Source: Bacteroidia bacterium (lineage in GTDB: Bacteria > Bacteroidota > Bacteroidia > UBA8524). Taken from it: a stretch of DNA of 64,000 nucleotides. Shown here piece by piece: positions 12,029 to 43,396 of this stretch. The first letter of the stretch is position 1, and each line of letters begins with the position of its first letter. The notes under the pieces are model-generated. The model did no database searches, was not told the origin of the DNA, and saw only the letters and a program-made list of their open reading frames with translations. The stretch is taken from assembly GCA_037968475.1 (NCBI GenBank), contig JBBKVO010000024.1, positions 68,067 through 132,066 on the forward strand. Reading direction: 5' to 3'. The position numbers and the translations under genes were made by a program.

Positions 12029-12128
12029 GATTTTAGGATTTTTTATATCGAACACACATTAGGGTCAGATGTTTTCATCTATCCTCAACTCAACGTATAA
12101 AACTCTACTTTTTCAGTATTGTGCGAGC
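12029..12128 (-). repeat. Copy A of the 3' end plus downstream flank of the AlbA_2-like gene (about 93% identical to 13035-13130)
   Basis: Direct alignment of ttttatatcgaacacacattagggtcagatgttttcatctatcctcaactcaacgtataaaactctactttttcagtattgtgcgagc with the true gene end. Confidence 0.6.
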
Positions 12129-12199
12129 TAGAGCATTTTTTGAAATAATAGCCACTTTGGATAACAATGTAATAAGAAAACTTAAAGTCAGGTCAAGTG

Positions 12200-12370
12200 C
12201 CACTATTTAAATAGAAAAAACCGCCATTAAAAAACAAAAAATAGTGCGTTTCACCATTTAAATAGGAAAGATATCCACTCGAATATTTTTAAAATAAGAT
12301 ATCCTCCGTTAATATAAAGCGCTACCTCTGACTAAATAATTACAAACCGCCATTTAAATAAAGAAACTGC
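12200..12370. repeat. Cluster of 3-4 direct repeats of a CC(G/A)CCATTTAAATA(G/A)AAA-like motif (12200-12225, 12217-12234, 12252-12270, 12347-12370). Possible iterons or a protein-binding array.
   Basis: Seen in the sequence. The ATTTAAAT core is itself palindromic. Confidence 0.3.
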
Positions 12371-12422
12371 TATTTGTATAAAATCGGTCGAAAGAGTTAA
12401 ATTAATTTGGGTACATTTGATC

Positions 12423-12457
12423 TAAATAAAAAAACCCCAATAATTGGTGCTATTGGG
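12423..12457 (-). terminator. Rho-independent terminator for minus-strand transcription: stem ccccaata/tattgggg with an 8-nt loop, followed on the minus strand by a T8+ run
   Basis: The perfect 8-bp stem and the A-run on the plus strand (12423-12433) are seen in the sequence. Confidence 0.45.
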
Positions 12458-12465
12458 GAATGATA

Positions 12466-12554
12466 TTGGCTAGTAGCTTAATCAGGATAAAGCGTCCCGC
12501 CATTGAGGAGTGGTAACCGTTTGGGAGGATAATAGTTCGAATCTATTCTAGCTG
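12466..12554 (+). ncRNA. tRNA-like element, either a degenerate class-II tRNA or a small tRNA-like RNA. It has a 7-bp acceptor stem (two G-U pairs), a D-arm (gctt/aagc with a GG-containing loop), a T-arm (aatag-TTCGAAT-ctatt), a 17-nt variable region and a non-canonical anticodon arm. A UGA anticodon appears only if a 4/5-bp stem with a mismatch is accepted.
   Basis: Hand-folded from the sequence. It is flanked by convergent terminators on the left (12423-12457, minus strand) and the right (12568-12590, plus strand). No CCA is encoded. Confidence 0.3.
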
Positions 12555-12567
12555 ACTATTTTAGTTT

Positions 12568-12590
12568 TAAAAGCCCTTAGGGGCTTTTTT
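12568..12590 (+). terminator. Rho-independent terminator (aaaagccc-ttag-gggctttt followed by TT) just downstream of the tRNA-like element
   Basis: 8-bp stem plus a T tract. Confidence 0.5.
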
Positions 12591-12663
12591 CATTATACAA
12601 ATATAAGAAGTTTCAATATCCCGACTACTTTTTTGCTCCCCAAGCCCATTTTTTGTTCTTTTC

Positions 12664-12697
12664 GCATTGGAAAAAAAAAATTTTTTTTTTCCAATGC
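12664..12697. repeat. Perfect 34-bp palindrome: gcattgg-A10-T10-ccaatgc
   Basis: Seen directly in the sequence. The homopolymeric A10/T10 core would be slippage-prone. It is a possible bidirectional terminator or recombination site. Confidence 0.6.
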
Positions 12698-12768
12698 ACT
12701 GAAATACAGGGCAATAAATTCTTATTTAGACAGATTACAAATTATATTTTTAATGTATGGATTTCTGG

Positions 12769-12960
12769 TCAGCTTAGAGTATAAAACTCTACTTTTTCAG
12801 TATTGTGCGAGCGGATAATACCCGCCGAAATAAGGTTGACCAATATTTTACTGGCACGCCAGCGCGAAATATTTATCATTTTGCATCCGCTCGTTTGTGG
12901 TTTAAGCTTATCAGCTTCATTGGCCTGAAGACCAATGCTATTCATACCTAACGGCACTCC
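12769..12960 (-). pseudogene. Copy B, a fragment (last ~60 codons plus stop) of the AlbA_2-like gene. It is about 92% identical to 13087-13275 with an ~18-bp internal deletion.
   Basis: The 62-aa ORF translation ends ...CKMINISRWRASKILVNLISAGIIRSHNTEKVEFYTLS, which is identical to the C-terminus of the 207-aa protein at 13087-13710. Confidence 0.65.
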
Positions 12961-13086
12961 CGATAGGGTCTAAATAGCGGTAGGTTTTAACCTGCTGCGG
13001 TAGTAAGGGCATAACTATACTCTCGCACAGATTTTATAATTTTCTTTTATCGAACGCACATTAGGGTCAGATGTTTTTATCTATCC

Positions 13087-13710
13087 TCAACTCAGCGTAT
13101 AAAACTCTACTTTTTCTGTATTGTGCGAGCGGATAATACCTGCCGAAATAAGATTAACCAATATTTTACTGGCACGCCAGCGCGAAATATTTATCATTTT
13201 GCAATATTGTTTCAAAGTGATGCGCTCGTTTTTGGCTAGGTAATCCAGCAAGGCTTGCTCTTTACTGGTTATTTGTATCAAATTATCTTTTTGGGCAGTC
13301 TCTTTTTTCAGCACATCTACCACCACCTTGCTGGCCAGCAGGCTCTTATCTTTCACACGTATATACACCCACCATTTGCCATCCTCGCCTTTGGCGGCAT
13401 AGGGTTTGTCTTTTCCTTCGGGAATAATGGCCTCCAATATAATTTTCCCCTCCAACTCATGCTCAAGTATTAGCAACTCAATAGTGGGTTTGCAGTAAAA
13501 ATCAGCAGCAAGACCAAGCATATATTTTTCGTCCTCGGTGCGTATACCCGCAATACTTTTATTATCGCGTACGCCAACCAAAAGTCGTCCGCCTTTTCGG
13601 TTAGCAAATGATACCATTGTTTTGGCAATTTTTGCGGCGCTGCTTATCTCCTGCTTAAAATCCAGCTCTTCGTTTTCGCCCTTTTGTATCAAATACCGCA
13701 AATCCTTCAT
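13087..13710 (-). CDS. AlbA_2/Schlafen-like divergent-AAA (putative DNA-binding) domain protein with a C-terminal winged-helix. Often annotated as an ATP-binding protein or transcriptional regulator.
   Basis: 207 aa. N-terminal ELDFKQEISSAAKIAKTMVSFANRKGGRLLVGVRD matches the AlbA_2 signature. C-terminal HTH-like segment. Confidence 0.5.
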   Translation of the reverse strand: MKDLRYLIQKGENEELDFKQEISSAAKIAKTMVSFANRKGGRLLVGVRDNKSIAGIRTEDEKYMLGLAADFYCKPTIELLILEHELEGKIILEAIIPEGKDKPYAAKGEDGKWWVYIRVKDKSLLASKVVVDVLKKETAQKDNLIQITSKEQALLDYLAKNERITLKQYCKMINISRWRASKILVNLISAGIIRSHNTEKVEFYTLS

Positions 13711-27264: not shown

Positions 27265-27313
27265 TTAATCTCAAAAGTAATAGATTTTTTATGGAAGTTG
27301 ACAGACAGTGCTA

Positions 27314-27358
27314 TACTTCCCCCTTTGTCAAACTTTAAAAGTTTGACAAAGGGGGAAG
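27314..27358. repeat. Perfect 45-nt palindrome (cttccccctttgtcaaacttt-a-aaagtttgacaaagggggaag) ~50 bp upstream of the GT-C/ccm operon start
   Basis: Seen directly in the sequence. Confidence 0.6.
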
Positions 27359-27408
27359 TGATATTGGTTTTCTTTTTCATCCCCCTACCTCCTTCGCTTG
27401 CGCACTTA

Positions 27409-27432
27409 TCCTTCGACTTCGCTCTGGATGAC
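27409..27432 (-). repeat. Hairpin-repeat core copy (reverse orientation): ccttcgacttcgctctggatgaca
   Basis: Matches the family consensus TGTCATCCTGAGCGRAGTCGAAGG. Confidence 0.55.
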
Positions 27433-27505
27433 AACGCGCTTGTGCATGGGCTAGTTCGGTTTTACTCACCCTAAAAAATACAAAATCGTACGATGGCTCA
27501 AAATT

Positions 27506-27530
27506 TCCCCTCTCTAAAAATTAGAGAGGG
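27506..27530. repeat. Perfect hairpin cccctctcta-aaaat-tagagagggg
   Basis: Seen directly in the sequence. Confidence 0.5.
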
Positions 27531-27682
27531 GAGCAACGACACAAATCAGGCTAAACAATATTTTGGGGTGAGTTAAAAAAACCTTGTCGACAGGTTAAAA
27601 CCTGCCGCTATTTATTACCCTATCGGGATTGCCGTGAGGTATGAATAGAATCGGGTTTCAAACCGATGAAAGCAACAGCACT

Positions 27683-27820
27683 CCTTCGACTTCGCTCAGG
27701 ATGACAGCCGCCGCACAAGGGGGACAATGCAGGGTTATATTTTTGGCAAAATAGTCTAAAAACCAATGGGCAGAGTCGTGGCTTCCCTCCTTGCGCTGTC
27801 GTCCAGAGCGAAGTCGAAGG
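27683..27820. mobile_element. MITE-like element, 138 bp. Terminal inverted copies of the repeat core (27683-27706 reverse, 27796-27820 forward) flank a ~90-bp spacer containing the family's internal motif caagggggacaatgcagg.
   Basis: The two 24-bp termini are reverse complements (22/24 matches). The same internal motif recurs at 32452-32478. Confidence 0.5.
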
Positions 27821-27978
27821 ATTGTGTCTGGATAAGGAGGGACTGAGGGTGGTATAAGTTGGTGTATTGATTTTTAACCCGAGCTTACGTTGAGTTAATC
27901 TTATTTCTTAAAGTAGAAAAATATAAAAAGATTGCTCTGTTAACATAAGAGGTTTTTCCACAATGACGAAAAAAAAGC

Positions 27979-28515
27979 CTAAAACTTGTTCTTCCACATC
28001 ATGCTTTCTACGGGTTTCATGGTGCGTTTGTTATACTTGGCCGATTTTTTATTGTCGTAGCTGGTTTCAATTTCACCACTTACTTCAAAATATATCAATT
28101 GGCCAATGGGCATACCGCGATAAATGCGCACAGGTTGCGATGCCGATATTTCCAACGTCCACGTATTGCAAAAACCAACATCGCCTTTGCCTGCCGTAGC
28201 GTGTATATCTATACCCAAACGGCCTGTACTGCTTTTACCTTCTAAAAAAGGGATATGCTTGTGGGTTTCTGTATACTCTTCGGTTACACCCAAATATAAA
28301 GTGCCGGGTTGCAGCACAAAGCCCTCCATAGGGATTTCGAAAATATCTATTTTATTATGCTCTTTAGCATCCAAAACACGGTTTTTGTAGGTGCCCAAAT
28401 GTTTGCCCAAATGCACATCGTACGAGTTGCTGCCCAAACAATCTTTGCGAAAAGGTTCTATTAAAATAGTGCCTAGTTCAATCTCCTCCAGTATTTTTTT
28501 ATCTGATAATATCAT
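27979..28515 (-). CDS. dcd: dCTP deaminase
   Basis: 178 aa. The KSSTGRLGI and LEIS catalytic region is typical of Dcd. Confidence 0.8.
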   Translation of the reverse strand: MILSDKKILEEIELGTILIEPFRKDCLGSNSYDVHLGKHLGTYKNRVLDAKEHNKIDIFEIPMEGFVLQPGTLYLGVTEEYTETHKHIPFLEGKSSTGRLGIDIHATAGKGDVGFCNTWTLEISASQPVRIYRGMPIGQLIYFEVSGEIETSYDNKKSAKYNKRTMKPVESMMWKNKF

Positions 28516-28562
28516 TGTCTTGTATTCTATTCAAAATGGTTTGGGCTTTGACAACATCTCCG

Positions 28563-29492
28563 CTAAGTGCCTATTTGCCATAGCTTGGCGGTTTTGTCAT
28601 CACTGCACGAAATAAGCCTATTATCATCAACCCACAAAATTTTGTTTACTGATGATGTGTGCCCGTCGTACTTTTCTTTGTCAATAACCTTTAGCAGCTC
28701 AAAAGTATCGGCATCCCATATTTTAAGGGTTTTATCCATGCTTGCCGTGGCAAAATAGTGCCCTGCGGGGCTGTATTGTATGGCGTTTATGTGCAGCCAA
28801 TGGGCATTTATGGTTTGTACTGGTGCAAAGCCTTTGTGTACTTCCCAAATTTTTAACACGGCATCCAGCCCACCGCTAAGTAAAAACGCACCGTTGGGCG
28901 AGTAAGCCAAAGCCATTACCGTATTGGTATGCCCTTGTATTTGCTGCAACAGCTCAAAACTTTCAATATCAAATACCCTAATAATAGCATCGCTATACCC
29001 CACAGCCATTTGTGGCAAGGTGGGGTGAAAGGCTATTACACGGGCTTTTTTATCGCTGTGCTGTATATTGGCAAACAGGGTAAGTGTTTCCCGATCCCAT
29101 ACCTTTAGGCTGCCTTCGCCACCTGCACTTAAAATTTTATTTCCGTGTGCAGCCAAATCAAAAATACCTGCGCGGTGCGCTTCAATATTTCGGGTTTCTT
29201 GGCGTTGTTGCATATCCAGCACGTGCAAATGGCCTGCACTGGTGCCGCACAACAACCGTTTTTCATCGCCCAAAACTAAAAACGAGTACACAGGCGAATT
29301 GGCTTTTACCAGCAATTGCCCATCGGCGGGTTGTTCAAAATTCCACTCCACCACCCAACCTTCGGCACCGCCTGTTACAAACGTATTGGGGGCAAAGCCT
29401 TTGCCCAAGCCAAACAGCGCGGCTTTGTGGCCGGTATAAGTAAACAGTTTATGGGCGTGTAGTTTGGTCAAATTGGGTATTGTGATGTCCAC
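28563..29492 (-). CDS. WD40-repeat protein
   Basis: 309 aa with ~7 repeats ending in W(D/E)/IWD. Confidence 0.7.
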   Translation of the reverse strand: MDITIPNLTKLHAHKLFTYTGHKAALFGLGKGFAPNTFVTGGAEGWVVEWNFEQPADGQLLVKANSPVYSFLVLGDEKRLLCGTSAGHLHVLDMQQRQETRNIEAHRAGIFDLAAHGNKILSAGGEGSLKVWDRETLTLFANIQHSDKKARVIAFHPTLPQMAVGYSDAIIRVFDIESFELLQQIQGHTNTVMALAYSPNGAFLLSGGLDAVLKIWEVHKGFAPVQTINAHWLHINAIQYSPAGHYFATASMDKTLKIWDADTFELLKVIDKEKYDGHTSSVNKILWVDDNRLISCSDDKTAKLWQIGT

Positions 29493-29518: not shown

Positions 29519-30511
29519 TTACTCTCTTAATAATAACCCTAAATCATAAGTGCCTGAAATGCCAGAATAATAATGAGACTCTTTTATCTCGTCCTTAAAA
29601 TAGGTTCTCTTTTCCCCATTCTTTAAATCTATGATGCGCATCTTAGTGTCTGACGACGTGTCATTAAGGCAAATAATATTTTCTCCGCTATGTAGAGTTA
29701 AATACAACACTTTTTTCTCTTTAGATAACATTTCACAAACAGAACCATTAGAAGTATTTGTACATTCACCAATATAATACGCGTTGGTTTCACTTTTATT
29801 TAGTTGAAAAATCTTAACAGTGTCTACAAGAAAATCAAAGGTGAAGTTTTTTTGTGTATTCTTATGTTTGATGGCAAAACCTATTGATAGTGTTGGGTAT
29901 TTAAGAATATATGATGTGCTGTTTTGAAGTGACGAAGTCATATCTTTTTGGTAGCTACCATCCTCGATAACTAACCTACTGGGCCAATAATTGCTTGTCG
30001 TCGATTTTTTATGAGTCGTGGTAGTTGCAAAATAATTATTGCTACTTGCCCATTGATAATTAAACGTATATAACTCCTTACCTAAGGAAGAAATTGATGA
30101 TGTAAAACGAGAAGTGCTTTTATGCGCGGGGATTATTGTTGTATTTGATGTTTTTTGAGCAACATTTTGGTCGAGGATGTTTTCTTCTAAAATATCAGGA
30201 TTAAATAGTTTTTGAGAGTTTCCCGTTGGCTCTACCAAATAAGATTCATCCCAAATAATAAAAGCATTATCATCGGTATTATTTGTTATTTTAAACCAAA
30301 CGCCTTGCCCTGTCAATGCAAAATTAAACTCAAAACTATCTTGGGGAGTAATATTAGATTTTGTAGTCTTACTCTTTATGGAATAAAGAAAAACAGTTGG
30401 TTTACAACTAAAAGAGATAAGCGCAAAAGAAAAGATAAGTAAAAAAAATTTAGCCATAAGCAAAGATATAAAAAGAATAACTTGTTCGATATTACTTTTG
30501 AAGTGTGCCAA
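29519..30511 (-). CDS. Hypothetical lipoprotein (lipobox ISFSC), low GC
   Basis: 330-aa ORF, S/T/N-rich, AT-rich codon usage. The probable true start is an internal Met (MAKFFLL...). Confidence 0.4.
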   Translation of the reverse strand: MAHFKSNIEQVILFISLLMAKFFLLIFSFALISFSCKPTVFLYSIKSKTTKSNITPQDSFEFNFALTGQGVWFKITNNTDDNAFIIWDESYLVEPTGNSQKLFNPDILEENILDQNVAQKTSNTTIIPAHKSTSRFTSSISSLGKELYTFNYQWASSNNYFATTTTHKKSTTSNYWPSRLVIEDGSYQKDMTSSLQNSTSYILKYPTLSIGFAIKHKNTQKNFTFDFLVDTVKIFQLNKSETNAYYIGECTNTSNGSVCEMLSKEKKVLYLTLHSGENIICLNDTSSDTKMRIIDLKNGEKRTYFKDEIKESHYYSGISGTYDLGLLLRE

Positions 30512-31134
30512 TAGTCCTGCAAAAATACCCTAATGCCGATACAGAATTGGCGGTGTGGAAAATTACTGAAAGCGTTGAGGAACTGAAAGAGATGCTTTGG
30601 ATGTTTCCGTTTGAAGAATTTAAGTTTCCCAGTCGCAACCAGCAATGGCTATCAAGCCGCGTATTGCTGCAAGAGGTATTGAAAAACAAAACGGAAGAAA
30701 AGCACCTGAAAGTGCTGAAACAACCGAACGGAAGACCTTTTATTGATGGTTTGGGCTATAATTTTAGCATGAGCCACTCAGCAGAGTATGCGGCAGTATT
30801 GGTGAGCAAAACGGGCAGTGTGGGAGTTGATATTGAAGAGATAAACGAACGAATAAAAAAAATAGCCCGCAAGTTTATAAACGAATACGAGTGGCAGCAC
30901 TTGGCTGGCGAAAACGACTTGCACACTATGTATTTGATATGGAGTGCCAAAGAAGCTATTTTTAAATGGTTTGGCGATGGGCAGGTAGATTTTAGAAAAA
31001 ATATGCAGATACTTTTTCCTATTGCTGAAAACGCAACCGAGTTTGAAGCTGTATTACTGAAAGAGAAAGAATATAACCTAACCATACACACCGAAATTGT
31101 TGACGAACAATACCGCTTGTGTTGGGTGTATTGA
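30505..31134 (+). CDS. 4'-phosphopantetheinyl transferase, Sfp/EntD type
   Basis: 209 aa. NFSMSHS and WSAKEAIFKWFG motifs. Confidence 0.7.
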   Translation: MPIVLQKYPNADTELAVWKITESVEELKEMLWMFPFEEFKFPSRNQQWLSSRVLLQEVLKNKTEEKHLKVLKQPNGRPFIDGLGYNFSMSHSAEYAAVLVSKTGSVGVDIEEINERIKKIARKFINEYEWQHLAGENDLHTMYLIWSAKEAIFKWFGDGQVDFRKNMQILFPIAENATEFEAVLLKEKEYNLTIHTEIVDEQYRLCWVY

Positions 31135-31143
31135 TGTGAAATT

Positions 31144-31701
31144 ATGAGAAAATTAAAGGCATTGGTATTTATTCTAGTTGTTCTCACGTTAGGTTGTGAA
31201 ATGAAAACGTACACACTTCAAAATGGAATAACAAAGGTTCCTGTTGACTCAACTGTATATAAGAATAAATCTAAATTTGATAAAAGTCTCCTAACTATTA
31301 TAGATACTGGGGTGATATATGAAGAATACAGGTCTGAAAAGAAAATCTTATCGAGATTGGATAGTGATATTACTACAAGTATTTATGGAGTTATAAGGTT
31401 TTATTCAAATGGATGCTATAATAATTTTTATATTAATAGAGATAATATGTTAGATTCAAATGATTTTAATCCTTTATATAATGGTAAAAGAGGAGTTTAT
31501 TATAAGGAAGGAAACCAAATTCGGTATGATTTGTATGCAGAAAGTAATCAACAAGGGCATATTGGGTTGTTAACTGGCACTTTTGTTTTTAGCAATGATA
31601 CTTTATATAAGTACACTTACAGTGATTATTTAAAACAGCCTAGTATCTATATTAAACGGAGGCTGCCCACAGGGTATTTAGATTATAGTGCCAATTGGTA
31701 G
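31144..31701 (+). CDS. Hypothetical lipoprotein (MRKLKALV...LTLGC), low GC
   Basis: 185 aa. The signal peptide and lipobox are seen in the sequence. The first 9 codons are shared with the ORF at 31911. Confidence 0.45.
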   Translation: MRKLKALVFILVVLTLGCEMKTYTLQNGITKVPVDSTVYKNKSKFDKSLLTIIDTGVIYEEYRSEKKILSRLDSDITTSIYGVIRFYSNGCYNNFYINRDNMLDSNDFNPLYNGKRGVYYKEGNQIRYDLYAESNQQGHIGLLTGTFVFSNDTLYKYTYSDYLKQPSIYIKRRLPTGYLDYSANW

Positions 31702-31713
31702 TGAAGGTATTGG

Positions 31714-31901
31714 AGCGAAAAGCCATTTTTAAATGGTTTGGCGATGGCCAGGTTGATTTTAGAAAAAATATGCAGATATTTTTTCCTATTGCTGAAAGTG
31801 CCACCGAGTTTGAAGCGGTATTGCTAAAAGAGAAAGAATATAACCTAACCATACACACCGAAATTGTAGACGAACAATACCGCTTGTGTTGGGTGTATTG
31901 A
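31714..31901 (+). pseudogene. Duplicated 3' fragment of the PPTase gene (last ~58 codons)
   Basis: The 68-aa ORF tail KAIFKWFGDGQVDFRKNMQIFFPIAESATEFEAVLLKEKEYNLTIHTEIVDEQYRLCWVY is near-identical to the C-terminus of 30505-31134. It is part of a 226-bp direct repeat (30947-31172 versus 31714-31939, ~93% identical). Confidence 0.7.
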
Positions 31902-31910
31902 GGTAAAATT

Positions 31911-32402
31911 ATGAGAAAATTAAAGGCATTAGTATTGTTAGTTATTGCTGTTTTAAGTGTTTTTGTTTTTTGTAAAGTGAAAAGCTTTTATACTTTTCAA
32001 GAAACAATTAAGCCTGTAATGAAGTACGACACATTGTGGAGGATGATAGGCTATTCAGTTGAGTCTTATACTAAGGAATTTCCTGAAGATTCTGTGATTA
32101 CTATTAAAGATATACAAGATTTTATTGGGTGTGATACGTCTACAAAAAGTTATGGGAATTTTGCTTTTATATATGCCGCTGAATATAATTTTTTCCGACA
32201 GGAAAATATTAGAATCCAAAGAGTAGATTCTCTAGACAAAGTTTTTGTTTATTATGAATTAAATAGTGCCTATCCCATTGCTGAATTTAATCCCTATGAA
32301 AAAGGTTTTTTTGATTTTTTATTTTTGAGGAAAAATATTTTGATTAATGAGGTTAATATTTGGCATAAACGTAAAGACGTCAGAACAGCTTATCCAAATT
32401 AA
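31911..32402 (+). CDS. Hypothetical secreted protein or lipoprotein. It shares only the first 9 codons (MRKLKALVL) with 31144-31701 and is low GC.
   Basis: 163-aa ORF. Its start lies inside the downstream copy of the direct repeat. Confidence 0.4.
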   Translation: MRKLKALVLLVIAVLSVFVFCKVKSFYTFQETIKPVMKYDTLWRMIGYSVESYTKEFPEDSVITIKDIQDFIGCDTSTKSYGNFAFIYAAEYNFFRQENIRIQRVDSLDKVFVYYELNSAYPIAEFNPYEKGFFDFLFLRKNILINEVNIWHKRKDVRTAYPN

Positions 32403-32439: not shown

Positions 32440-32540
32440 ACGAACTAACCTTGCTCAAGGGGGACAATACAGCGCGAGTTATTATTTAATAGTTTGTGCG
32501 GTATTTGTCATCCTGAGCGGAGTCGAAGGAGAGCGAGGGG
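32440..32540 (+). repeat. Hairpin-repeat family copy (internal motif caagggggacaatacagcg ... core TGTCATCCTGAGCGGAGTCGAAGGAGAGCGAGGGG)
   Basis: Aligned to the copies at 27683-27733 and 32945-32978. Confidence 0.55.
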
Positions 32541-32548
32541 TAAAACGT

Positions 32549-32857
32549 TTATTTATTTTTATAATGAGAGCTGTTTTTGCATACGGCTAATTCTTTTAGC
32601 AACTCAAAATCGCCATTAATCAGTGCTTCTTTTTTCTTTCTACTCCAACCTTTTAGTTGTTTTTCAAAAGCTATAGCAAGAGTTGCAATAGTAAACTCAG
32701 TAGTAAATAATAAATTAACAGGTCGGCGTTCAAATGTATAGGCTTTGTTGTCCGCACTCGTGTTATGTTCCTCTAACCTACGGTTTATATCATTGGTTAT
32801 ACCTGTGTAGTATGAACCATCAGAGCACTTTACTATATAAACAATATAAAGTTTCAC
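32549..32857 (-). CDS. GIY-YIG nuclease family protein (UPF0213/COG2827-like), probable GTG start
   Basis: (V)KLYIVYIVKCSDGSYYTGITNDINRRLEEHN is the canonical GIY-YIG N-terminal motif. The ATG-initiated 133-aa track ORF runs into the flanking repeat and is taken as an artefactual extension. Confidence 0.65.
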   Translation of the reverse strand: MKLYIVYIVKCSDGSYYTGITNDINRRLEEHNTSADNKAYTFERRPVNLLFTTEFTIATLAIAFEKQLKGWSRKKKEALINGDFELLKELAVCKNSSHYKNK

Positions 32858-32905
32858 TTGCGGCAATATAACCGAATTTTTAATTGGCTTGGCCACCACA
32901 CCGTG

Positions 32906-32978
32906 CCTCGACTCCGCTCGGCATGACACAGCGCGCTGTGCGGCTGTCATCCTGAGCGGAGTCGAAGGAGAGCGAGGG
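32906..32978. repeat. Inverted pair of hairpin-repeat cores (32906-32928 reverse, 32945-32978 forward) forming a ~23-bp stem with a 16-nt loop
   Basis: cctcgactccgctcggcatgaca ... tgtcatcctgagcggagtcgaagg. Confidence 0.6.
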
Positions 32979-32984
32979 TTGGGA

Positions 32985-34052
32985 TTAAAACTTAACGCCT
33001 AATTTAACGCCTAATTCTTCCAAGTCTTTTGTTACGGCATCGGTAAGGGGTATACCATTTTGCAGGCGGTTTTCTTGCTCAAAAATTTCGGGTTCGCCGG
33101 GTATTAGCACTTTTTTGCCTTCAATAGCAGGTGATGCCTTAAAGCGTTCTATCCAATTTTCAATATTTTTATTGTATTCGTCCATCGGGCGAAAACCATC
33201 TACCCGCATAGCTCCCACAAAATGACCGATACCTTGTCCCGGCATATCAGCAGCAAGGGGCAAAAAACTAACAAAAGGGGGCACCCACGGGCCATAGTTT
33301 GCACCTGATAATACCGCCGAAAATATATCTACCACCGCCGCCAGCGCATAGCCTTTGTGTCCCGCCTCTTCCATACTGCCAAGGGGTAGCAATGCGCCGC
33401 CTTTTTTCAGTTCGGCAGGGTCGGTACTGGGTTGTCCGTCTTTGGTTTGTACCCAACCTTCGGGGATGCTTTTGTTTAGTCGCTGAGCTATTTCCAGTTT
33501 TCCGTTTGCCGCTGCCGATGTGGCTAAATCGCTTACAACGGGTGTATATTTTCCCGCAGGCATAGCAAAACACATGGGGTTGGTGCCCAGTAAACGCTCA
33601 GTACTGTTGGTAGGGGCTACTAGCGGACTGGCATTGGTCATACTAATGCCAATCATATTTTGTTCTGTTGCCATTAGGGCATGGTAGGCCGCAATACCAA
33701 AGTGGTTAGAGTTTTTTATGGCTACCCATCCGCTGCCTACGTTGTTGGCTTTTTCAATAGCTATTTCCATAGCTTTTGGGGCTACTACCAAGCCCAAACC
33801 TTCATCGCCATCTACTGTGGCGGTGGATGGGGTTTGGTGGACTATTTTAATATTGGGTTTGGGGTTTATACGGCCTGCTTCCCATAGGCGCACGTAGCCC
33901 GATAGGCGGGCAACACCATGCGAATCAATTCCGCGTATATCAGCCTTTACCAAAACATTGGTGGCAAGGGTAGCATCAGCATCGCTGCAACCCATTTTAG
34001 TAAAAACCGAATGACAAAAGTTTTCTAAGTGTTGTTTTGTGTAGGTATTCAT
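32985..34052 (-). CDS. Ldh_2 family (malate/L-lactate/sulfolactate dehydrogenase-like) oxidoreductase
   Basis: 355 aa. N-terminal region GIDSHGVARL is typical of Ldh_2. Confidence 0.65.
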   Translation of the reverse strand: MNTYTKQHLENFCHSVFTKMGCSDADATLATNVLVKADIRGIDSHGVARLSGYVRLWEAGRINPKPNIKIVHQTPSTATVDGDEGLGLVVAPKAMEIAIEKANNVGSGWVAIKNSNHFGIAAYHALMATEQNMIGISMTNASPLVAPTNSTERLLGTNPMCFAMPAGKYTPVVSDLATSAAANGKLEIAQRLNKSIPEGWVQTKDGQPSTDPAELKKGGALLPLGSMEEAGHKGYALAAVVDIFSAVLSGANYGPWVPPFVSFLPLAADMPGQGIGHFVGAMRVDGFRPMDEYNKNIENWIERFKASPAIEGKKVLIPGEPEIFEQENRLQNGIPLTDAVTKDLEELGVKLGVKF

Positions 34053-39021: not shown

Positions 39022-40506
39022 TCACTCATTACAAACGCCTGCTTCCACCAAATAGTGTCGGTCTTCACGCTCAAAGTAATAGCGCACATTAGGTTTAATT
39101 ACAGAATCAGGGTGTTGCAGCCGTTCAGTTGGGTTTACACCCTCCCACAACGTTTCATCACATATCACCATACGCGGGTTAGTCCACGCATTGTATACAC
39201 TGCTTATCCATAAGTAATCGTGCTTATGAAATGCTCCCAACAGCCAATAAGGCGGGGCAACAGCATAGTTGTGTGGCAATACATGGGCTACGGCTTCAAT
39301 TTCTTTTACATACGGTTTTTCATCCGCAGGGTTGGGTGCAGTCAAAATACCAACAGCATTTTTGCTAAAAGAATAATTCACTTCTGTTTTTAGCAACACT
39401 ACCTGTGCGCCAATTAAAACAATAGCTACAATACTATTGGCCGTAATAATTTTTTTGGGCGAAGAAAACCAAAACCGTCCCTGCACAAGGCTATATACAG
39501 CCACGGCCAAAAACAACGTAAACGATAGCGAAAAACGAGGAACCCAAGTGAGCGAAAACCCGTTTTGTGGCAAGTATACCAAGCCCGATACCATGTTTAC
39601 TGCAAGCACAGGCATGAGTATCAAAACCCACCACAGCAACAGTTTGGGCTGTATGCGCACAAACAGCAGCCATACCAATAGGGGCAATTGCATTAAAGCA
39701 AAACTTTTTAGTATTGAGCCTATGTATTCACTTTTAACCCTGCTGTCCATTTCAGCCCATCGGGCAAAAGCCTTGTCCAATCGGGTTTCGGCAAAGTGGT
39801 TTTTATATTTTAGGTAGATAATACCCAATGCAAAAACCGCGATATATACCAAGCCCCACACCAACGATTTTTTTAGCCATTGCTTTTGGGTGATGCGTTG
39901 CGAAATCCACTCCCAAGTAAAATATAAAGTGTGCAAGCAAGCGGCCAATACTGCCCCGTCCTCTTTAACAGAAATAATAAAAAGTGCACTGATAATGCTA
40001 ACCCATTTTTGCTGCCTGTATAGCGAAAGGGAGAAAATAAACCCCAGCGGGACATACAGCATTTCTATATGGAAGCCAAACCAAGTATCATCGTACAACC
40101 AAAAGGAATATGGGCCAAGAAACAGGGCAAGAAGAAAAACGGTGATACGGGCTTTGTTCACTTCGGCTTTTTGTAAGGTTTTAAAGCAGTATATAAATGC
40201 CCAAACATAAAGCCCCAATTGTGCCACAAACAGCCCATAAGCTCCAAGCCAAAGCACCAGAGGCCCCAGCAATAGGTTAAAAAAATAGTTATGATACAAA
40301 GCATGGTGGCCATAGTTATTCTCAAACATAGCAGGGCGACCTTGCAGCCAGCTACGGCTTATTTGTATGTGCGAGAACAAATCGCTTTGGTAAGTGTGCT
40401 TATTAAATAAAGAGAGTTTTGCAGCAAAAAACCAAAGCAGCATTGCCAAACCAATGCCCACAACGGCTATTGCCCAATACTGCTTTTTTTTACTGTGCTC
40501 TGCCAT
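39022..40506 (-). CDS. Large polytopic membrane protein, DUF2079-like (putative GT-C-type glycosyltransferase)
   Basis: 494 aa with ~12 TM segments. The periplasmic-loop pattern SDLFSHIQISRSWLQGRP...HHALYHNYFF resembles DUF2079. It is a tandem paralog of 40506-42005. Confidence 0.4.
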   Translation of the reverse strand: MAEHSKKKQYWAIAVVGIGLAMLLWFFAAKLSLFNKHTYQSDLFSHIQISRSWLQGRPAMFENNYGHHALYHNYFFNLLLGPLVLWLGAYGLFVAQLGLYVWAFIYCFKTLQKAEVNKARITVFLLALFLGPYSFWLYDDTWFGFHIEMLYVPLGFIFSLSLYRQQKWVSIISALFIISVKEDGAVLAACLHTLYFTWEWISQRITQKQWLKKSLVWGLVYIAVFALGIIYLKYKNHFAETRLDKAFARWAEMDSRVKSEYIGSILKSFALMQLPLLVWLLFVRIQPKLLLWWVLILMPVLAVNMVSGLVYLPQNGFSLTWVPRFSLSFTLFLAVAVYSLVQGRFWFSSPKKIITANSIVAIVLIGAQVVLLKTEVNYSFSKNAVGILTAPNPADEKPYVKEIEAVAHVLPHNYAVAPPYWLLGAFHKHDYLWISSVYNAWTNPRMVICDETLWEGVNPTERLQHPDSVIKPNVRYYFEREDRHYLVEAGVCNE

Positions 40507-42005
40507 TATTTTGGGGTTATACCGGCCTCAATAAGGTAGTGTCGGTCTTCACGTTCAAAATAAAACTTTACTTCGGGTCTAATTACCGAGTCGGCGTGCT
40601 GCAACAGTTGGTCGGCAACAACATTTTCACTATTGCTGTTATCGCATATAATCATGCGCGGCCACACACGGGCATTAAAAATCACATTCGTCCATATCAC
40701 ATCCTGTTTATGGAAATAGCCAAACATAGGATATGGCGGTGCAACGGGGTACATTTCAGGGAGCACTTGCGCCACCTTTCGCACATCGTTCCAATAGGGG
40801 TAGTAATCGTGGGGAGGAGTATCTCTAAAAATTTTTTGCGTGTTTTGGTGGTACGAGTAGTCAATTTCTGATTTCAGTAATTTTTTTTGCCAATTGAAAA
40901 TACCATAACCTACAACTATTGCTGCTACCCAACACACAAAAGCAGGACGAAACCAAGCCCTTGAAAACATAAGCAGTGAAAATGCGCCCATAGCCAAAAA
41001 AAGACTAAGAATAAGCGAAAAACGAGGTACCCAAGTGAGTGAAAAACTTTGCGCAGGGAAGTATACAAACCCTGAAATAAGGTTGACGATAATAATGGGA
41101 ATTGAAAACGCTAACCACCACAACCATGCCTTATAATTTAGTTGGCGGATGAAGAATAAGAACAAAGCAAAGGGCAACAACATTAGCCCGAACGAAGAAA
41201 AAACACCTGTAAAGTAAGCGCGTATATCTTGTGTGCTTTGCAGGCTTATCCGCTCAAACGATTCGGTAATTCTATCGTAGCCAAAATTGTTTTGCGCTTT
41301 TAGGTAATAAACACCTGCCACAAAAAAGGCTACCCAAACCCCACCCCACAATAGCGATTGCAGTAGCCAGCGTTTTGCGGTTATTTTTTTAGCGGTCATT
41401 TGCAAGGCTATAAACAACAGGTGTATGCAGGCTACCATTACGGCTCCGTCTTCTTTTATACTAAGCATTAGCAAGGCTGCCAATGCACTAACCCAATGTT
41501 GTTTTTTGTATAGCGAAACAGCAAACACAAACCCTAGCGGTATGTATAGCATTTCGGTATGAAAACCGTAGTGCGGATCATCGTACAACCAAAAAGAAAA
41601 AGGCGCACAAAAAATGGCAAGGTAAAAAACGGCAGTAAGCAGGCGATGGTTTAGGCTTTCATCTTTCTTATAAACGGTAGGGAAAGTATATACCAAAGCC
41701 AAAACATACAGCACAAACTGGGTAATGAAAATACCTGTTGCACCCCACTGTTTGGCCAAAGGCCCCATTAGCAAATCAAAAAAATAATTATGCAGTTTGC
41801 TATGGTCGCCATAGCAATTTTCGTGCATCAATGGGCGACCTTGCAGCCAGCCTCGGGCTATTTCTAGGTGCGTATATAAGTCTGATTGGTAGCCCATTTT
41901 ATTAAAAATGGTAAGCTTTGCAGCAAAGTACCAAACCAATATCCCCAGTGAGGTAAAAAACACTGCTAGTCCAAAGAAATCACGTTTTTTAAAAAGCTCT
42001 ATCAC
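40506..42005 (-). CDS. DUF2079-like polytopic membrane protein, paralog of 39022-40506
   Basis: 499 aa. Same architecture and conserved C-terminus (EREDRHYLIEAG). Its stop shares 1 nt with the downstream start, and its start overlaps the upstream gene by 4 nt. Confidence 0.4.
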   Translation of the reverse strand: MIELFKKRDFFGLAVFFTSLGILVWYFAAKLTIFNKMGYQSDLYTHLEIARGWLQGRPLMHENCYGDHSKLHNYFFDLLMGPLAKQWGATGIFITQFVLYVLALVYTFPTVYKKDESLNHRLLTAVFYLAIFCAPFSFWLYDDPHYGFHTEMLYIPLGFVFAVSLYKKQHWVSALAALLMLSIKEDGAVMVACIHLLFIALQMTAKKITAKRWLLQSLLWGGVWVAFFVAGVYYLKAQNNFGYDRITESFERISLQSTQDIRAYFTGVFSSFGLMLLPFALFLFFIRQLNYKAWLWWLAFSIPIIIVNLISGFVYFPAQSFSLTWVPRFSLILSLFLAMGAFSLLMFSRAWFRPAFVCWVAAIVVGYGIFNWQKKLLKSEIDYSYHQNTQKIFRDTPPHDYYPYWNDVRKVAQVLPEMYPVAPPYPMFGYFHKQDVIWTNVIFNARVWPRMIICDNSNSENVVADQLLQHADSVIRPEVKFYFEREDRHYLIEAGITPK

Positions 42006-43396
42006 TTAGTTTTTTCTTCCGTTTGTTTGCGCACCAAAATATACTGCCATACCAAAAGTGCAGCGGCCATTGGCAATAGCCATATCATACGTGCCATATA
42101 CCTATCTACCACGCCCGAAAACGAGGCGCACACCACACCATTCACCACACTGCCTATAAACACCGTTAGGGCAAAGGCAAAAGCGCTGCTATATACAGGT
42201 TTGCGATAAAAAAACACTCCAAAAATCACAAGTAGTAATAACGAGGCATACACCACCCACCGCTGTATGGTAGACTGTGTTTCAAAATACAATGTTTGGG
42301 TATACTGCACTGCATTTTGGTATTGAGGCATCTCTCGACCAAAAAAATCTTTTATTCCACCATATACAGGAGAACCTTCGGCCATTGGGGTGAGGTAGCC
42401 CAAATCAAACATAAAAAGTTGTTTCCAACCGTCTTCCACACATTTTTCTATCAAAACAGCGCGGGCAGGGCCGTAGGCCAAAATACCTTTTACAGTTTTA
42501 CCATAAGCCGCATCTTTTTCAATCCAGCATTCGCCCCAACCTTTGGCTACACAGGCACTATCGTATAGGGGGCTGTTGTTATACTCCCACAAAAAAGCTA
42601 CGGCGTGTGGCGGCAGGTTGTTTTTTACAGCACAAAGGTCGGCAGGTGCATCGGGGCATTTATGGTCGAGGTATACTTTGGCTGCCCCTGTTTCTATGCA
42701 GCGCGCCACCAAAAACACATTGCCCGTGCGCGAAGGTCTAAAACCCACACCCAACCAATAGTTGAACAAGCAAATAACCAACCACGCGGCCAAGCCCCAA
42801 AACACCACCCGTTTATGGGTTTTGTTTCTAGCAGCAAAAAAAGGTTTTTTCTTAAAAATAAGTCGCAACACAAAAAGGCCAATGGCCAGAATACTAAATA
42901 TAAGCAGGTGCGAGCTATGCACCGATATTGAAAATAACAATACCACTACCAACCAAAAACGGTGTTTGGGGGCTATGTCTTTTCCTGCTACCAAAGTAGC
43001 AAAAGCCAATAGTGCTATGGGCGAGAATACATCGGCCATTATTTGGCTGTGGTTGTGCGATAAGCCTGTTAACAAGCCCAAACCTGCCAATAAAAGACAA
43101 GTAGGAATAAAGGAATTTTTTATCTGTAAAATGTATTTTACCGCCATGCGGGCAGCAAACAGTAACACCAACGATTGCGCAAACAATACCAACCAAAGGC
43201 TAAACCACATACTGCTGTGGCGCACAAACCAACTGTAAAAATAAGGTCTGTCTACAGGGACATAGTGTATAAAACCCGCTACTATATACGTGCCTGAATC
43301 AGAATAGAGCATGGGATAGCCATTGAGCAGGGCAGGAAAATTAATTGCTGCCAGCGCGACTATAAAAGCCAATATTTTTAGCACCCATTGCCTCAC
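42002..43396 (-). CDS. Hypothetical polytopic membrane protein with a Cys-rich periplasmic domain
   Basis: 464 aa. ~6 N-terminal TM segments, a 150-aa hydrophilic segment with 8 Cys (CIETGAAKVYLDHKCPDAPADLC...CVAKGWGEC), then C-terminal TM segments. Confidence 0.35.
   Translation of the reverse strand: MRQWVLKILAFIVALAAINFPALLNGYPMLYSDSGTYIVAGFIHYVPVDRPYFYSWFVRHSSMWFSLWLVLFAQSLVLLFAARMAVKYILQIKNSFIPTCLLLAGLGLLTGLSHNHSQIMADVFSPIALLAFATLVAGKDIAPKHRFWLVVVLLFSISVHSSHLLIFSILAIGLFVLRLIFKKKPFFAARNKTHKRVVFWGLAAWLVICLFNYWLGVGFRPSRTGNVFLVARCIETGAAKVYLDHKCPDAPADLCAVKNNLPPHAVAFLWEYNNSPLYDSACVAKGWGECWIEKDAAYGKTVKGILAYGPARAVLIEKCVEDGWKQLFMFDLGYLTPMAEGSPVYGGIKDFFGREMPQYQNAVQYTQTLYFETQSTIQRWVVYASLLLLVIFGVFFYRKPVYSSAFAFALTVFIGSVVNGVVCASFSGVVDRYMARMIWLLPMAAALLVWQYILVRKQTEEKTK

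Follow-up and report, generated by a model that had tools for sequence, protein, structure and literature searches.

Duplicated phosphopantetheinyl transferase gene ends and mosaic genes for exported proteins at a gene-turnover hotspot in Bacteroidia

Introduction

Horizontal-transfer hotspots that lie between conserved core genes without recognisable mobile elements turn over by recombination at the flanking core genes (Oliveira, Touchon, Cury & Rocha 2017, PMC5635113). We report here on a locus of comparable layout in a stretch of 64,000 nt from a Bacteroidia bacterium (GTDB class Bacteroidia, UBA8524; GenBank assembly GCA_037968475.1, contig JBBKVO010000024.1, positions 68,067 to 132,066 of the forward strand), hereafter called the window, whose positions are counted from its first letter. 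At this locus the 3' end of a phosphopantetheinyl transferase (PPTase) gene occurs twice as a direct repeat (R, copies A and B), and each copy leads into a different small open reading frame (ORF), termed ORF185 and ORF163. The repeat is present in three copies in a relative designated L009 (L009/L010 correspond to contig k119_12656 of ENA ERZ27314160, an independent sample and assembly), in which the genes between the copies are likewise referred to as U genes.

The locus resembles the hotspots described above in its syntenic flanks, fast turnover of content, cargo of low guanine-plus-cytosine (GC) content, lack of integrase and transposase genes, and evidence of homologous recombination in and next to a flanking core gene. 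It differs from them in that the insertion would here have left a duplicated core-gene 3' end as an internal repeat, providing extra homology within the spot. The hotspot label is used here in the knowledge that its formal definition rests on the pangenome of a species, whereas the relatives compared in this study are separate species-level metagenomic lineages.

Homology-facilitated illegitimate recombination (HFIR) was reportedly described by de Vries and Wackernagel in 2002 as occurring during the uptake of foreign DNA. The locus is similar in that one side of the insert is continuous with a homologous PPTase gene and the other side ends in a unique joint that lacks homology apart from a few bases of microhomology at most, and in that the substitutions of the PPTase fragment resemble those of a different functional allele. 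It is dissimilar in that the joint lies inside the anchor gene, so that the insertion duplicates part of the anchor instead of deleting recipient DNA.

Genomic islands, integrative and conjugative elements (ICE) and cis-mobilizable elements (CIME) that accrete at the 3' end of a gene supply a replacement 3' end and are bordered by direct att repeats. As in these elements, the target gene at the present locus stays intact by means of a new 3' end, and in L009 the old 3' end forms a distal direct repeat and units occur in tandem. A distal repeat of the target 3' end that passes into native DNA was found in L009 (third R, TAA stop codon, then DNA of the repetitive extragenic palindrome, or REP, type), and the window lacks a distal R. 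Unlike an island or ICE-CIME, the locus has no integrase in cis, its repeat is a ragged one of ~220 nt rather than a short exact core, and its unit is a single-gene segment of 767 nt. Integron features (IntI, attI, attC palindromes at cassette ends) were absent as well, as no integrase and no inverted repeat in the linker or at the unit ends were detected.

In the vsa, vsp and vlp loci of Mycoplasma, a conserved 5' region and signal-peptide start are joined to alternative gene bodies. The same arrangement is seen here, with an identical upstream region and first signal-peptide codons preceding unrelated mature proteins and with a breakpoint in the signal-peptide coding region. The Mycoplasma loci employ site-specific recombinases and inversions, or a single expression site. 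The repeats of the present locus are direct, both of its genes are complete, and no recombinase gene lies within ~10 kb. Silent cassettes of the pilE/pilS, vlsE or vsa type were not found, since in the window and in L009 every one of these genes is a complete ORF that has its own ATG and is preceded by the same spacer.

Recombinase-associated arrays of orphan immunity genes in Bacteroidales (rAID-1) are defined by a XerD-like tyrosine recombinase gene at the 5' end and at least two co-directional downstream genes with a GC content of 41% or less (Ross et al., bioRxiv 10.1101/471110). The locus shares with these arrays a Bacteroidota host, small co-directional low-GC genes behind a conserved 5' gene with a repeat between them, and many exported or membrane proteins. 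ORF185 and ORF163, both on the plus strand after the PPTase gene, have GC contents of 0.296 and 0.285 in comparison to 0.41 for the PPTase gene and 0.46–0.47 for neighbouring core genes, which agrees with the low GC ascribed to both in a previous reading of the window from its sequence alone (hereafter the sequence-only reading). In contrast to rAID-1, the 5' gene encodes a PPTase and not a XerD-like recombinase, none of which is encoded nearby, the array of the window contains two genes only, and what is repeated is a piece of the 5' gene itself. No homology of ORF185 or ORF163 to immunity genes was detected in Pfam, NCBIfam or PADLOC.

Results and Discussion

The repeat and the unit that it delimits

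A repeat search identified one two-copy direct family at 30953-31169 and 31720-31936 (217 nt, 14 mismatches, 93.5% identity), with a start-to-start spacing of 767 nt and no third copy in the 64-kb window. BLAST of copy B against copy A returned E values of ~1e-79 to 1e-92, so the similarity is not due to chance. The 226-bp direct repeat of the sequence-only reading is therefore real, though over the exact ends given there (30947-31172 and 31714-31939) identity falls to 90.7%, and 8 of the 21 mismatches lie in the outermost few bases, outside the true homology.

Copy A (30947..31172, plus strand, core 30953-31169) comprises the last ~60 codons and the stop codon of the functional PPTase gene, a 9-nt spacer (31135-31143) and the first 26–29 nt of ORF185, which cover its first 9 codons and encode MRKLKALV. 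Copy B (31714..31939, plus strand, core 31720-31936) is composed of a 5'-truncated PPTase fragment, a spacer and the first codons of ORF163, so that the composition previously proposed (PPTase 3' end, 9-bp spacer and MRKLKALV start) applies to both cores. The fragment in copy B (31720-31901) retains an open frame with 3 amino-acid changes and lacks the first ~149 PPTase codons. Since it spans only the last ~60 residues and had no match in Pfam, it is regarded as a non-functional remnant, in line with its earlier designation as a pseudogene even though the frame is open. Scans for sigma-70 promoters, terminators and the Bacteroidetes -33/-7 motif (TTTG...TAnnTTTG) revealed none in or near R and gave counts at chance level, and a search of the whole window against Rfam at the gathering threshold gave no match.

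The intact PPTase gene (30505..31134, plus strand) encodes a 209-aa protein of the Sfp type, with a Pfam ACPS match (4.9e-15, residues 105-205), a weak match to 4PPT_N and exclusively sub-threshold NCBIfam matches to AcpT/HetI-type PPTases. The ACPS-superfamily domain and a length close to the ~210 aa of two-lobed Sfp-type enzymes are consistent with this assignment, and full-length orthologues in relatives share 96–97% aa identity.

The repeat-delimited unit of 767 nt consists of the PPTase 3' end, the 9-nt spacer, a gene and a ~12-nt linker (TGAAGGTATTGGAGCG). At the unit junction (31702..31719, plus strand) the sequence following the ORF185 stop codon (TGAAGGTATTGGAGCGAA) is joined to the interior of the PPTase gene. 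This junction, AATTGGTA(G/A)TGAAG(G/C)TATTGGAGCGAAA, occurs once in the window and twice in L009, where the gene order is PPTase, M1 (P0004, 185 aa), PPTase fragment, M2 (P0002, 187 aa), third PPTase fragment and Ldh_2. L009 thus carries an R-U-R-U-R array with units of 768 and 772 nt, and its genes M1 and M2 are paralogues over their whole length. As the junction is the same in the window and at both L009 sites, all PPTase fragments descend from one joining event, and its recovery twice in the independent L009 assembly indicates that it is not an assembly artefact. By sequence, the junction would be the single illegitimate joint of the array. That the repeat delimits a modular unit, as had been suggested, is also confirmed by the recurrence of R-U in L009 with an identical junction.

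An 8-nt match (AGTGCCAA) is present at the end of the U gene and in the PPTase gene just left of R. It may at best represent microhomology at the joint, because the C-terminal ...YSANW codons are intrinsic to the ORF185 family and are also found in members without a nearby PPTase gene. Spacer and start variants are ordered alike in the two arrays: copy A of the window equals L009 copy 1 (TGATGTGAAATT...GGCATTGG), and copy B equals L009 copy 2 (TGAGGTAAAATT...GGCATTAG...GTATTGTTA), including the spacer type TGAGGTAAAATT...GGCATTAG. The three fragments of the window and L009 carry differing 1–2-nt indels at their left edges. In its TAA stop and the REP-type DNA that follows, the third L009 copy is like the PPTase gene of the distant relative L002, and it contains an in-frame stop inside the fragment; it looks like the original resident PPTase 3' end, presumably displaced by the insert.

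Gene turnover between the PPTase and Ldh_2 genes

To obtain relatives, genome and metagenome collections were scanned with the PPTase as query, and the contexts of near-identical PPTase proteins were then retrieved. About a dozen lineages were recovered, whose flanking core genes are 90–93% identical to the window at the nucleotide level and which are species-level relatives rather than strains. They consist of metagenome-assembled genomes (MAGs) or metagenomic contigs, largely from marine metagenomes and including, to judge by record names, several TARA ocean records, and the clade is a genus-level group of uncultured, apparently marine Bacteroidia. Gene order in the relatives is conserved as dCTP deaminase, WD40 and PPTase on one side of the variable interval and Ldh_2 and CCG on the other. 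In the window the left core flank is formed by the dCTP deaminase gene (27979-28515) and a WD40-repeat gene (28563..29492, minus strand; Pfam WD40 2.6e-41), the latter syntenic and 90–93% identical in nucleotides in all close relatives, and the right flank by an Ldh_2-family dehydrogenase gene (32985..34052, minus strand; Pfam Ldh_2 1.4e-123; syntenic, 89–92% nucleotide identity).

Homology between lineages stops exactly at the PPTase stop codon, and at least five different contents of the PPTase-Ldh_2 interval were counted. A gene for a 129-aa transmembrane (TM) protein occupies the interval in L001 and L034 (uncalled in L033), is accompanied by a 152/155-aa gene in L014 and L021, and was also seen in L022-28, whose contigs end short of Ldh_2. 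L030-32 possess a gene for a 199-aa (lipo)protein, with an additional 152-aa gene in L030 and L031, L035 has a 589-aa gene, and L002-L004 carry other genes. One PPTase end was counted in each of ~10 relatives, two in the window and three in L009, and the R-U array is confined to 2 of ~12 lineages. The locus is clearly not invariant, as its content differs in every lineage examined, and with syntenic core flanks enclosing differing accessory genes the interval can be classified by sequence comparison as a gene-turnover hotspot. Because the relatives are species-level lineages with flanks of 90–93% nucleotide identity, the variation seen is evolutionary turnover between such lineages and not switching within a population.

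Individual products of the interval were also inspected. The L035 gene (2487-4256, minus strand) encodes a HATPase_c_3 / BbrUII-HgiDII-like, restriction-enzyme-like protein (NCBIfam 5e-44, below cut-off), and the multi-TM protein of L001 (6673-7062, plus strand, 129 aa) had a sub-threshold match to the Bfi1 immunity family of the type VI secretion system (28 bits versus a cut-off of 100). There are hints in these sequences that the spot may collect conflict-related genes.

Neighbour-joining (NJ) trees, calculated without support values, disagreed on the nearest relative of the window, as the 5' part of the PPTase gene (30505-30919) pointed to L014 and the left flank (27979-29492) placed the window in a basal position. 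This disagreement hints that alleles of the core gene next to the hotspot may have recombined.

Products of the U genes

ORF185 (31144..31701, plus strand) is predicted to encode a lipoprotein of a conserved ~185-aa family for which 36 homologues of ~165–210 aa were found, ORF163 not being among them. Its signal peptide is followed by the lipobox LTLGC (MRKLKALVFILVVLTLG-C) with a Cys18 that is nearly invariant over 32 family members, as expected for a bacterial lipoprotein, and the family is further characterized by an EMKTYTLQNG motif after the lipobox Cys and by the C-terminus ...YSANW. The AlphaFold (AF2) model is a beta-barrel (predicted local distance difference test, pLDDT, 91), for which a fold search against the PDB returned only weak matches to small beta-barrels, namely potempin E (E=0.012) and barrels resembling fatty acid-binding protein (FABP) or avidin.

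Away from PPTase genes, L011 has two ORF185 family members in tandem, and in L012 the family is represented behind a DoxX gene. The L011 pair (5001-6126) has no PPTase fragment and lies downstream of a Por_Secre_tail protein, which carries the type IX secretion system (T9SS) signal, and of small ORFs. From codon ~16 on, the second L011 gene is 84% identical in nucleotides to ORF185, and it may resemble the source of the cassette gene.

ORF163 (31911..32402, plus strand) belongs to a rare family with an N-terminal membrane anchor. A word-indexed search recovered only the self-match, and full HMMER identified the distant homologues P0038 (2.3e-25) and P0040 (4.8e-8), the former on a 1.5-kb contig with uninformative context; no record of ORF163 in other assemblies was present in the contig index. 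The three proteins align over their full length, hydrophobic N-terminus included, and Cys22 of ORF163 is absent in both homologues. Given this absence and a phenylalanine at position -1 of the putative lipobox, the product is predicted to be a membrane-anchored or secreted protein and not a lipoprotein. The model of ORF163 combines an alpha/beta fold and a long helix at the N-terminus (pLDDT 68). The designation of both genes as lipoprotein cassettes is therefore appropriate for ORF185 and does not extend to ORF163.

BLASTP similarity between ORF185 and ORF163 is confined to the first ~44 residues, the two have separate sets of homologues, and their predicted folds differ, demonstrating that they belong to different families, as the sequence-only reading had proposed. 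In comparison to M2 of L009, homology of ORF163 ends at ~31943 (codon 11) and the sequences are unrelated beyond, which places the breakpoint within the signal-peptide region and not at a unit boundary. Assignment of the U genes to a defence system or to known immunity proteins was rejected, since neither ORF185 nor ORF163 matched any family in PADLOC, NCBIfam or Pfam. This analysis has defined two uncharacterised families of exported proteins, one of beta-barrel lipoproteins of ~185 aa and one of membrane-anchored proteins of ~160 aa, as candidates for strain-specific envelope functions.

Mosaic genes and substitution pattern

Four units were aligned, with W1 denoting the ORF185 unit of the window and M1 and M2 the unit genes of L009. 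In pairwise comparisons of W1, M1 and M2, R and the first ~180 nt of the lipoprotein genes are mostly at least 90% identical. M1 and M2 share 88–100% identity in the middle block, where W1 is 50–68% identical to either (50–64% to M2), and over the last ~230 nt W1 and M2 are 96–98% identical, with M1 at 52–65% to either. The proportions of synonymous (pS) and nonsynonymous (pN) differences vary accordingly: divergent blocks have a pS of 0.6–0.7 and a pN of 0.25–0.34, the 3' block shared by W1 and M2 has a pS of 0.165 and a pN of 0, and the first 60 codons of the U genes have a pS of 0.10–0.13. Such block mosaics between the window and L009 require recombination between units or alleles. Since W1 is collinear with family members that are not linked to a PPTase gene (P0003 and L011 gene 2), M2 is best read as a W1-type gene that was probably converted in part by its neighbour M1.

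Flanking core genes showed a pS of 0.21–0.41 in comparison to 0.10–0.17 for the cassettes of the window and L009. An initial view that the cassettes are markedly more alike than the genome background was softened, as the difference is only about twofold and the flank tree permits vertical inheritance.

Substitutions between the R copies were predominantly synonymous. Copies A and B of the window (W_A and W_B) differ by 9 synonymous and 3 nonsynonymous changes (pS 0.265, pN 0.021; P=3.9e-5 under neutrality), and W_B differs from L009 copy 2 (M_2) by 13 synonymous and 5 nonsynonymous changes (pS 0.384, pN 0.034; P=1.3e-6 under neutrality). Functional PPTase 3' ends from different lineages have a pS of 0.12–0.29 with 0–5 nonsynonymous changes. 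In a dead fragment ~80% of changes would be nonsynonymous under neutral expectation, and the observed pattern therefore indicates that most R differences originated in functional PPTase genes and were carried into the fragments by recombination. Even so, the fragments are decaying, as shown by their extra amino-acid changes (3, 6 and 8) and the stop in the terminal one.

A simple duplication followed by decay in place is excluded by the synonymous excess between R copies. Nor did the data support concerted evolution of the fragment with the PPTase end of its own genome, because W_B is no nearer to W_A (12 differing positions) than to the alleles of other lineages (10–12 positions). Translation of the fragments as a leader peptide, which might cause a synonymous bias, was rejected, as the differing 1–2-nt indels at the left edges leave no shared start or frame and the terminal fragment has an in-frame stop. 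A further step is needed to account for the fragment pattern, possibly a later allelic replacement of the PPTase gene, at which the incongruent NJ trees hint.

Origin of the repeat

The repeat probably, though with considerable room for doubt, arose as a side effect when a gene was gained by way of HFIR at a horizontal-transfer hotspot, with reshuffling afterwards and without a dedicated machine. In one ancestor, a lipoprotein gene lying 9 nt behind a PPTase gene would have been imported together with the 3' end of that PPTase gene. The left side of the import would have been resolved by homologous recombination within or upstream of the resident PPTase gene and the right side, immediately after the stop codon of the lipoprotein gene, by an illegitimate joint to the resident PPTase gene ~190 nt before its stop. 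The expected outcome is the order PPTase(5')-R-U-R(fragment)-native downstream DNA, with the resident 3' end left behind as a fragment, and the third L009 R with its native-looking downstream DNA matches this prediction. Homologous recombination acting on the R copies and on the first ~180 nt of the U genes, which are conserved, could then have changed unit numbers and produced mosaic genes, by unequal exchange, by conversion in patches and by exchanges with other lineages. In the lineage of the window, a gene from a different family would have taken the place of the second gene body, from codon ~11 on, and of what followed, an event that displaced the second lipoprotein body and the distal fragment and possibly also brought in a REP-flanked GIY-YIG gene. 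We infer the HFIR origin, this order of events and a passive rather than selected process.

Genes for a recombinase, transposase or integrase were absent within ~10 kb in the window (Pfam scans on both sides) and in L009 (precomputed Pfam calls). An origin from a phage or plasmid was dropped, as the exact pattern of the R/U junction was not present in viral contigs and a BLASTN search of phage and plasmid records with 30947-32402 had no match.

Several observations weigh against this HFIR scenario. The window has no distal R beside native downstream DNA, so that its right end requires a further unobserved event, and neither a relative with a single R-U nor a PPTase-U donor without a fragment was found among the ~12 lineages. 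The microhomology at the joint (AGTGCCAA) is no more than suggestive, and array-bearing genomes number just two. In addition, the R fragments are not closest to the functional PPTase gene of their own genome, which calls for an extra assumption of allelic replacement that is hinted at only by the NJ trees.

An unlikely, though not negligible, alternative is an in-situ tandem duplication of the 767-nt segment by unequal or illegitimate sister-chromosome exchange with subsequent divergence, for which no foreign DNA is needed. It would account for the head-to-tail units of near-constant length (767, 768 and 772 nt) with one common novel junction and for the paralogy of the two L009 lipoprotein genes throughout their length, and the left-flank tree, whose two basal branches are the window and L009, would fit one ancient origin and one later replacement. 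Doubling of [R-U] would not, however, leave a terminal R beside native DNA as in L009, and the largely synonymous R differences conflict with neutral decay and with mutation only after duplication. Blocks with a pS of 0.6–0.7 beside blocks with a pS of 0.10–0.17 in one gene pair also necessitate import or conversion from deeply diverged alleles, and ORF163 is of another family. A mis-join, in which a metagenome assembler concatenated two strain variants of the region downstream of the PPTase gene, is barely credible. Such errors classically arise at repeats of ~94% identity, the window is apparently a metagenome-derived contig, and the relatives are all MAGs or metagenomic contigs, yet the U-end/linker/R junction was found twice in the independent ERZ27314160 assembly, concatenation would not yield a unique 18-nt linker, and the transition from R_B to ORF163 offers no long shared k-mer that could mislead an assembler.

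The remaining alternatives attribute an active role to the repeats. That they promote frequent recombination which swaps, deletes or amplifies envelope-protein genes within a population, for surface or immunity variation, is quite unlikely, even if the repeat and shared signal-peptide start amount to ~230–400 nt of portable homology per unit, lineages differ in copy number and show block mosaics, the gene products are exported or envelope proteins, and a further hypervariable lipoprotein gene lies on the other side of the PPTase gene. The differences were seen only between lineages with ~7–10% nucleotide divergence in the flanks, both genes are complete and co-oriented without silent or truncated copies, the pN of 0 in the 3' block of W1 and M2 reflects purifying and not diversifying selection, and the array is restricted to 2 of ~12 lineages and lacks a dedicated recombinase within ~10 kb. 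Direct repeats of ~220 nt and 94% identity recombine at ordinary RecA-dependent rates, which likewise counts against programmed variation. The cassette system envisaged in the sequence-only reading is supported in part, by the modular unit, mosaics and varying content, whereas complete ORFs (no silent cassettes) and the lack of a recombinase within ~10 kb are at odds with it. The predicted product of single-unit deletion was absent from the relatives examined, and homologous recombination between the repeats, also part of that reading, is reflected in the mosaics as recombination of units or alleles on an evolutionary time scale and not as a programmed switch. Still less likely are small integrase-less cassettes that insert site-specifically at the PPTase 3' end with a recombinase acting in trans, each bringing a replacement 3' end in the way of genomic islands or CIMEs at tRNA or gene 3' ends or of integron/rAID-1-like arrays. 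Formally, L009 reads as attL-U-att-U-attR with a distal copy and then native DNA, the unit boundaries are precisely conserved in two genomes, the low-GC co-directional genes with a repeated inter-gene sequence recall rAID-1 arrays, and the pS of 0.10–0.17 for the cassettes of the window and L009 lies below the 0.21–0.41 of the flanking core genes. These points are opposed by the lack of a tyrosine or serine recombinase within ~10 kb in either genome, by the absence of hairpins and of attC-like inverted repeats from both the linker and R (the sole 24-nt imperfect palindrome is inside coding sequence), and by ragged repeat edges with 1–2-nt indels in place of a sharp core site. Moreover, the U family occurs elsewhere without R (L011, L012), no copy was found in viral, phage or plasmid collections, and the second unit of the window breaks inside the signal peptide and not at the unit edge.

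A more speculative and equally improbable proposal is that the PPTase 3' end (the last ~190 nt, spacer and start codon) could serve as a portable attachment and expression module of a gene-capture array, recombinase-independent or dependent on a recombinase in trans, that collects orphan inhibitor- or immunity-like proteins in marine Bacteroidia, in functional analogy to rAID-1 and integrons. Every captured envelope-protein gene would then come with such a copy, which would supply homology for insertion and exchange as well as the upstream context for expression, and the array would rest on a housekeeping gene. If the array were indeed an active capture system, it would constitute a recombinase-less analogue of integron and rAID arrays. 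Under the favoured HFIR origin, the locus would provide a well-resolved natural example of hotspot building, in which one illegitimate joint duplicated a core-gene end that then supplied internal homology for unit gain, unit loss and mosaic formation. The locus does not reveal a new mechanism and represents fairly ordinary bacterial gene turnover in an uncultured clade of marine Bacteroidia.

Neighbouring variable regions

Between the WD40 and PPTase genes lies a low-GC (0.32) lipoprotein gene of ~312 aa (29519..30511, minus strand, likely start 30457) without a family assignment. Its counterpart in L014 and L021-23 is only 44% identical in amino acids despite flanks of ~93% nucleotide identity, it is absent in L001, L009, L030 and L033-35, and BLASTN gave no match at any fetched relative locus. 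By sequence comparison the WD40-PPTase gap is a second variable spot of the same hotspot.

On the Ldh_2 side, a GIY-YIG gene (32549-32950; Pfam 7.9e-18) within 32506..32978, on the minus strand, is placed between two perfect 34-nt direct repeats. These repeats (32506-32539 and 32945-32978, TGTCATCCTGAGCGGAGTCGAAGGAGAGCGAGGG) are REP-like palindromes with an inverted partner at 32908-32928. The gene is absent from the PPTase-Ldh_2 interval of all relatives, and a REP-like element adjoins the Ldh_2 stop codon in L001, L033 and L034. The GIY-YIG unit looks like a small element that may have inserted into, or duplicated, a REP-like palindrome.

Further variable or repetitive segments were noted elsewhere in the window. 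An intergenic stretch of ~700 nt (27265-27978) is dense in REP-like palindromes, some of which (27678-27718) are related to the 34-nt repeat, and the same interval contains extra small ORFs in relatives (154 and 107 aa in L021; 196 aa in L030), representing a third variable spot. Direct repeats of 90–133 nt with the core GTATAAAACTCTACTTTTTCAGTATTGTGCGAGC are found at 12039-13203 in two or three copies spaced by 684 and 318 nt, and they adjoin an odd 90-nt ARAGORN call of tRNA-Gln (12467-12556) that was not confirmed by Rfam. Finally, three tandem paralogous genes of 464–499 aa are located at 39022-43396 on the minus strand, one of them with a weak match to the DUF2079 membrane-protein family, and at least the first two share repeats at a spacing of ~1485–1499 nt with 70–72% identity.

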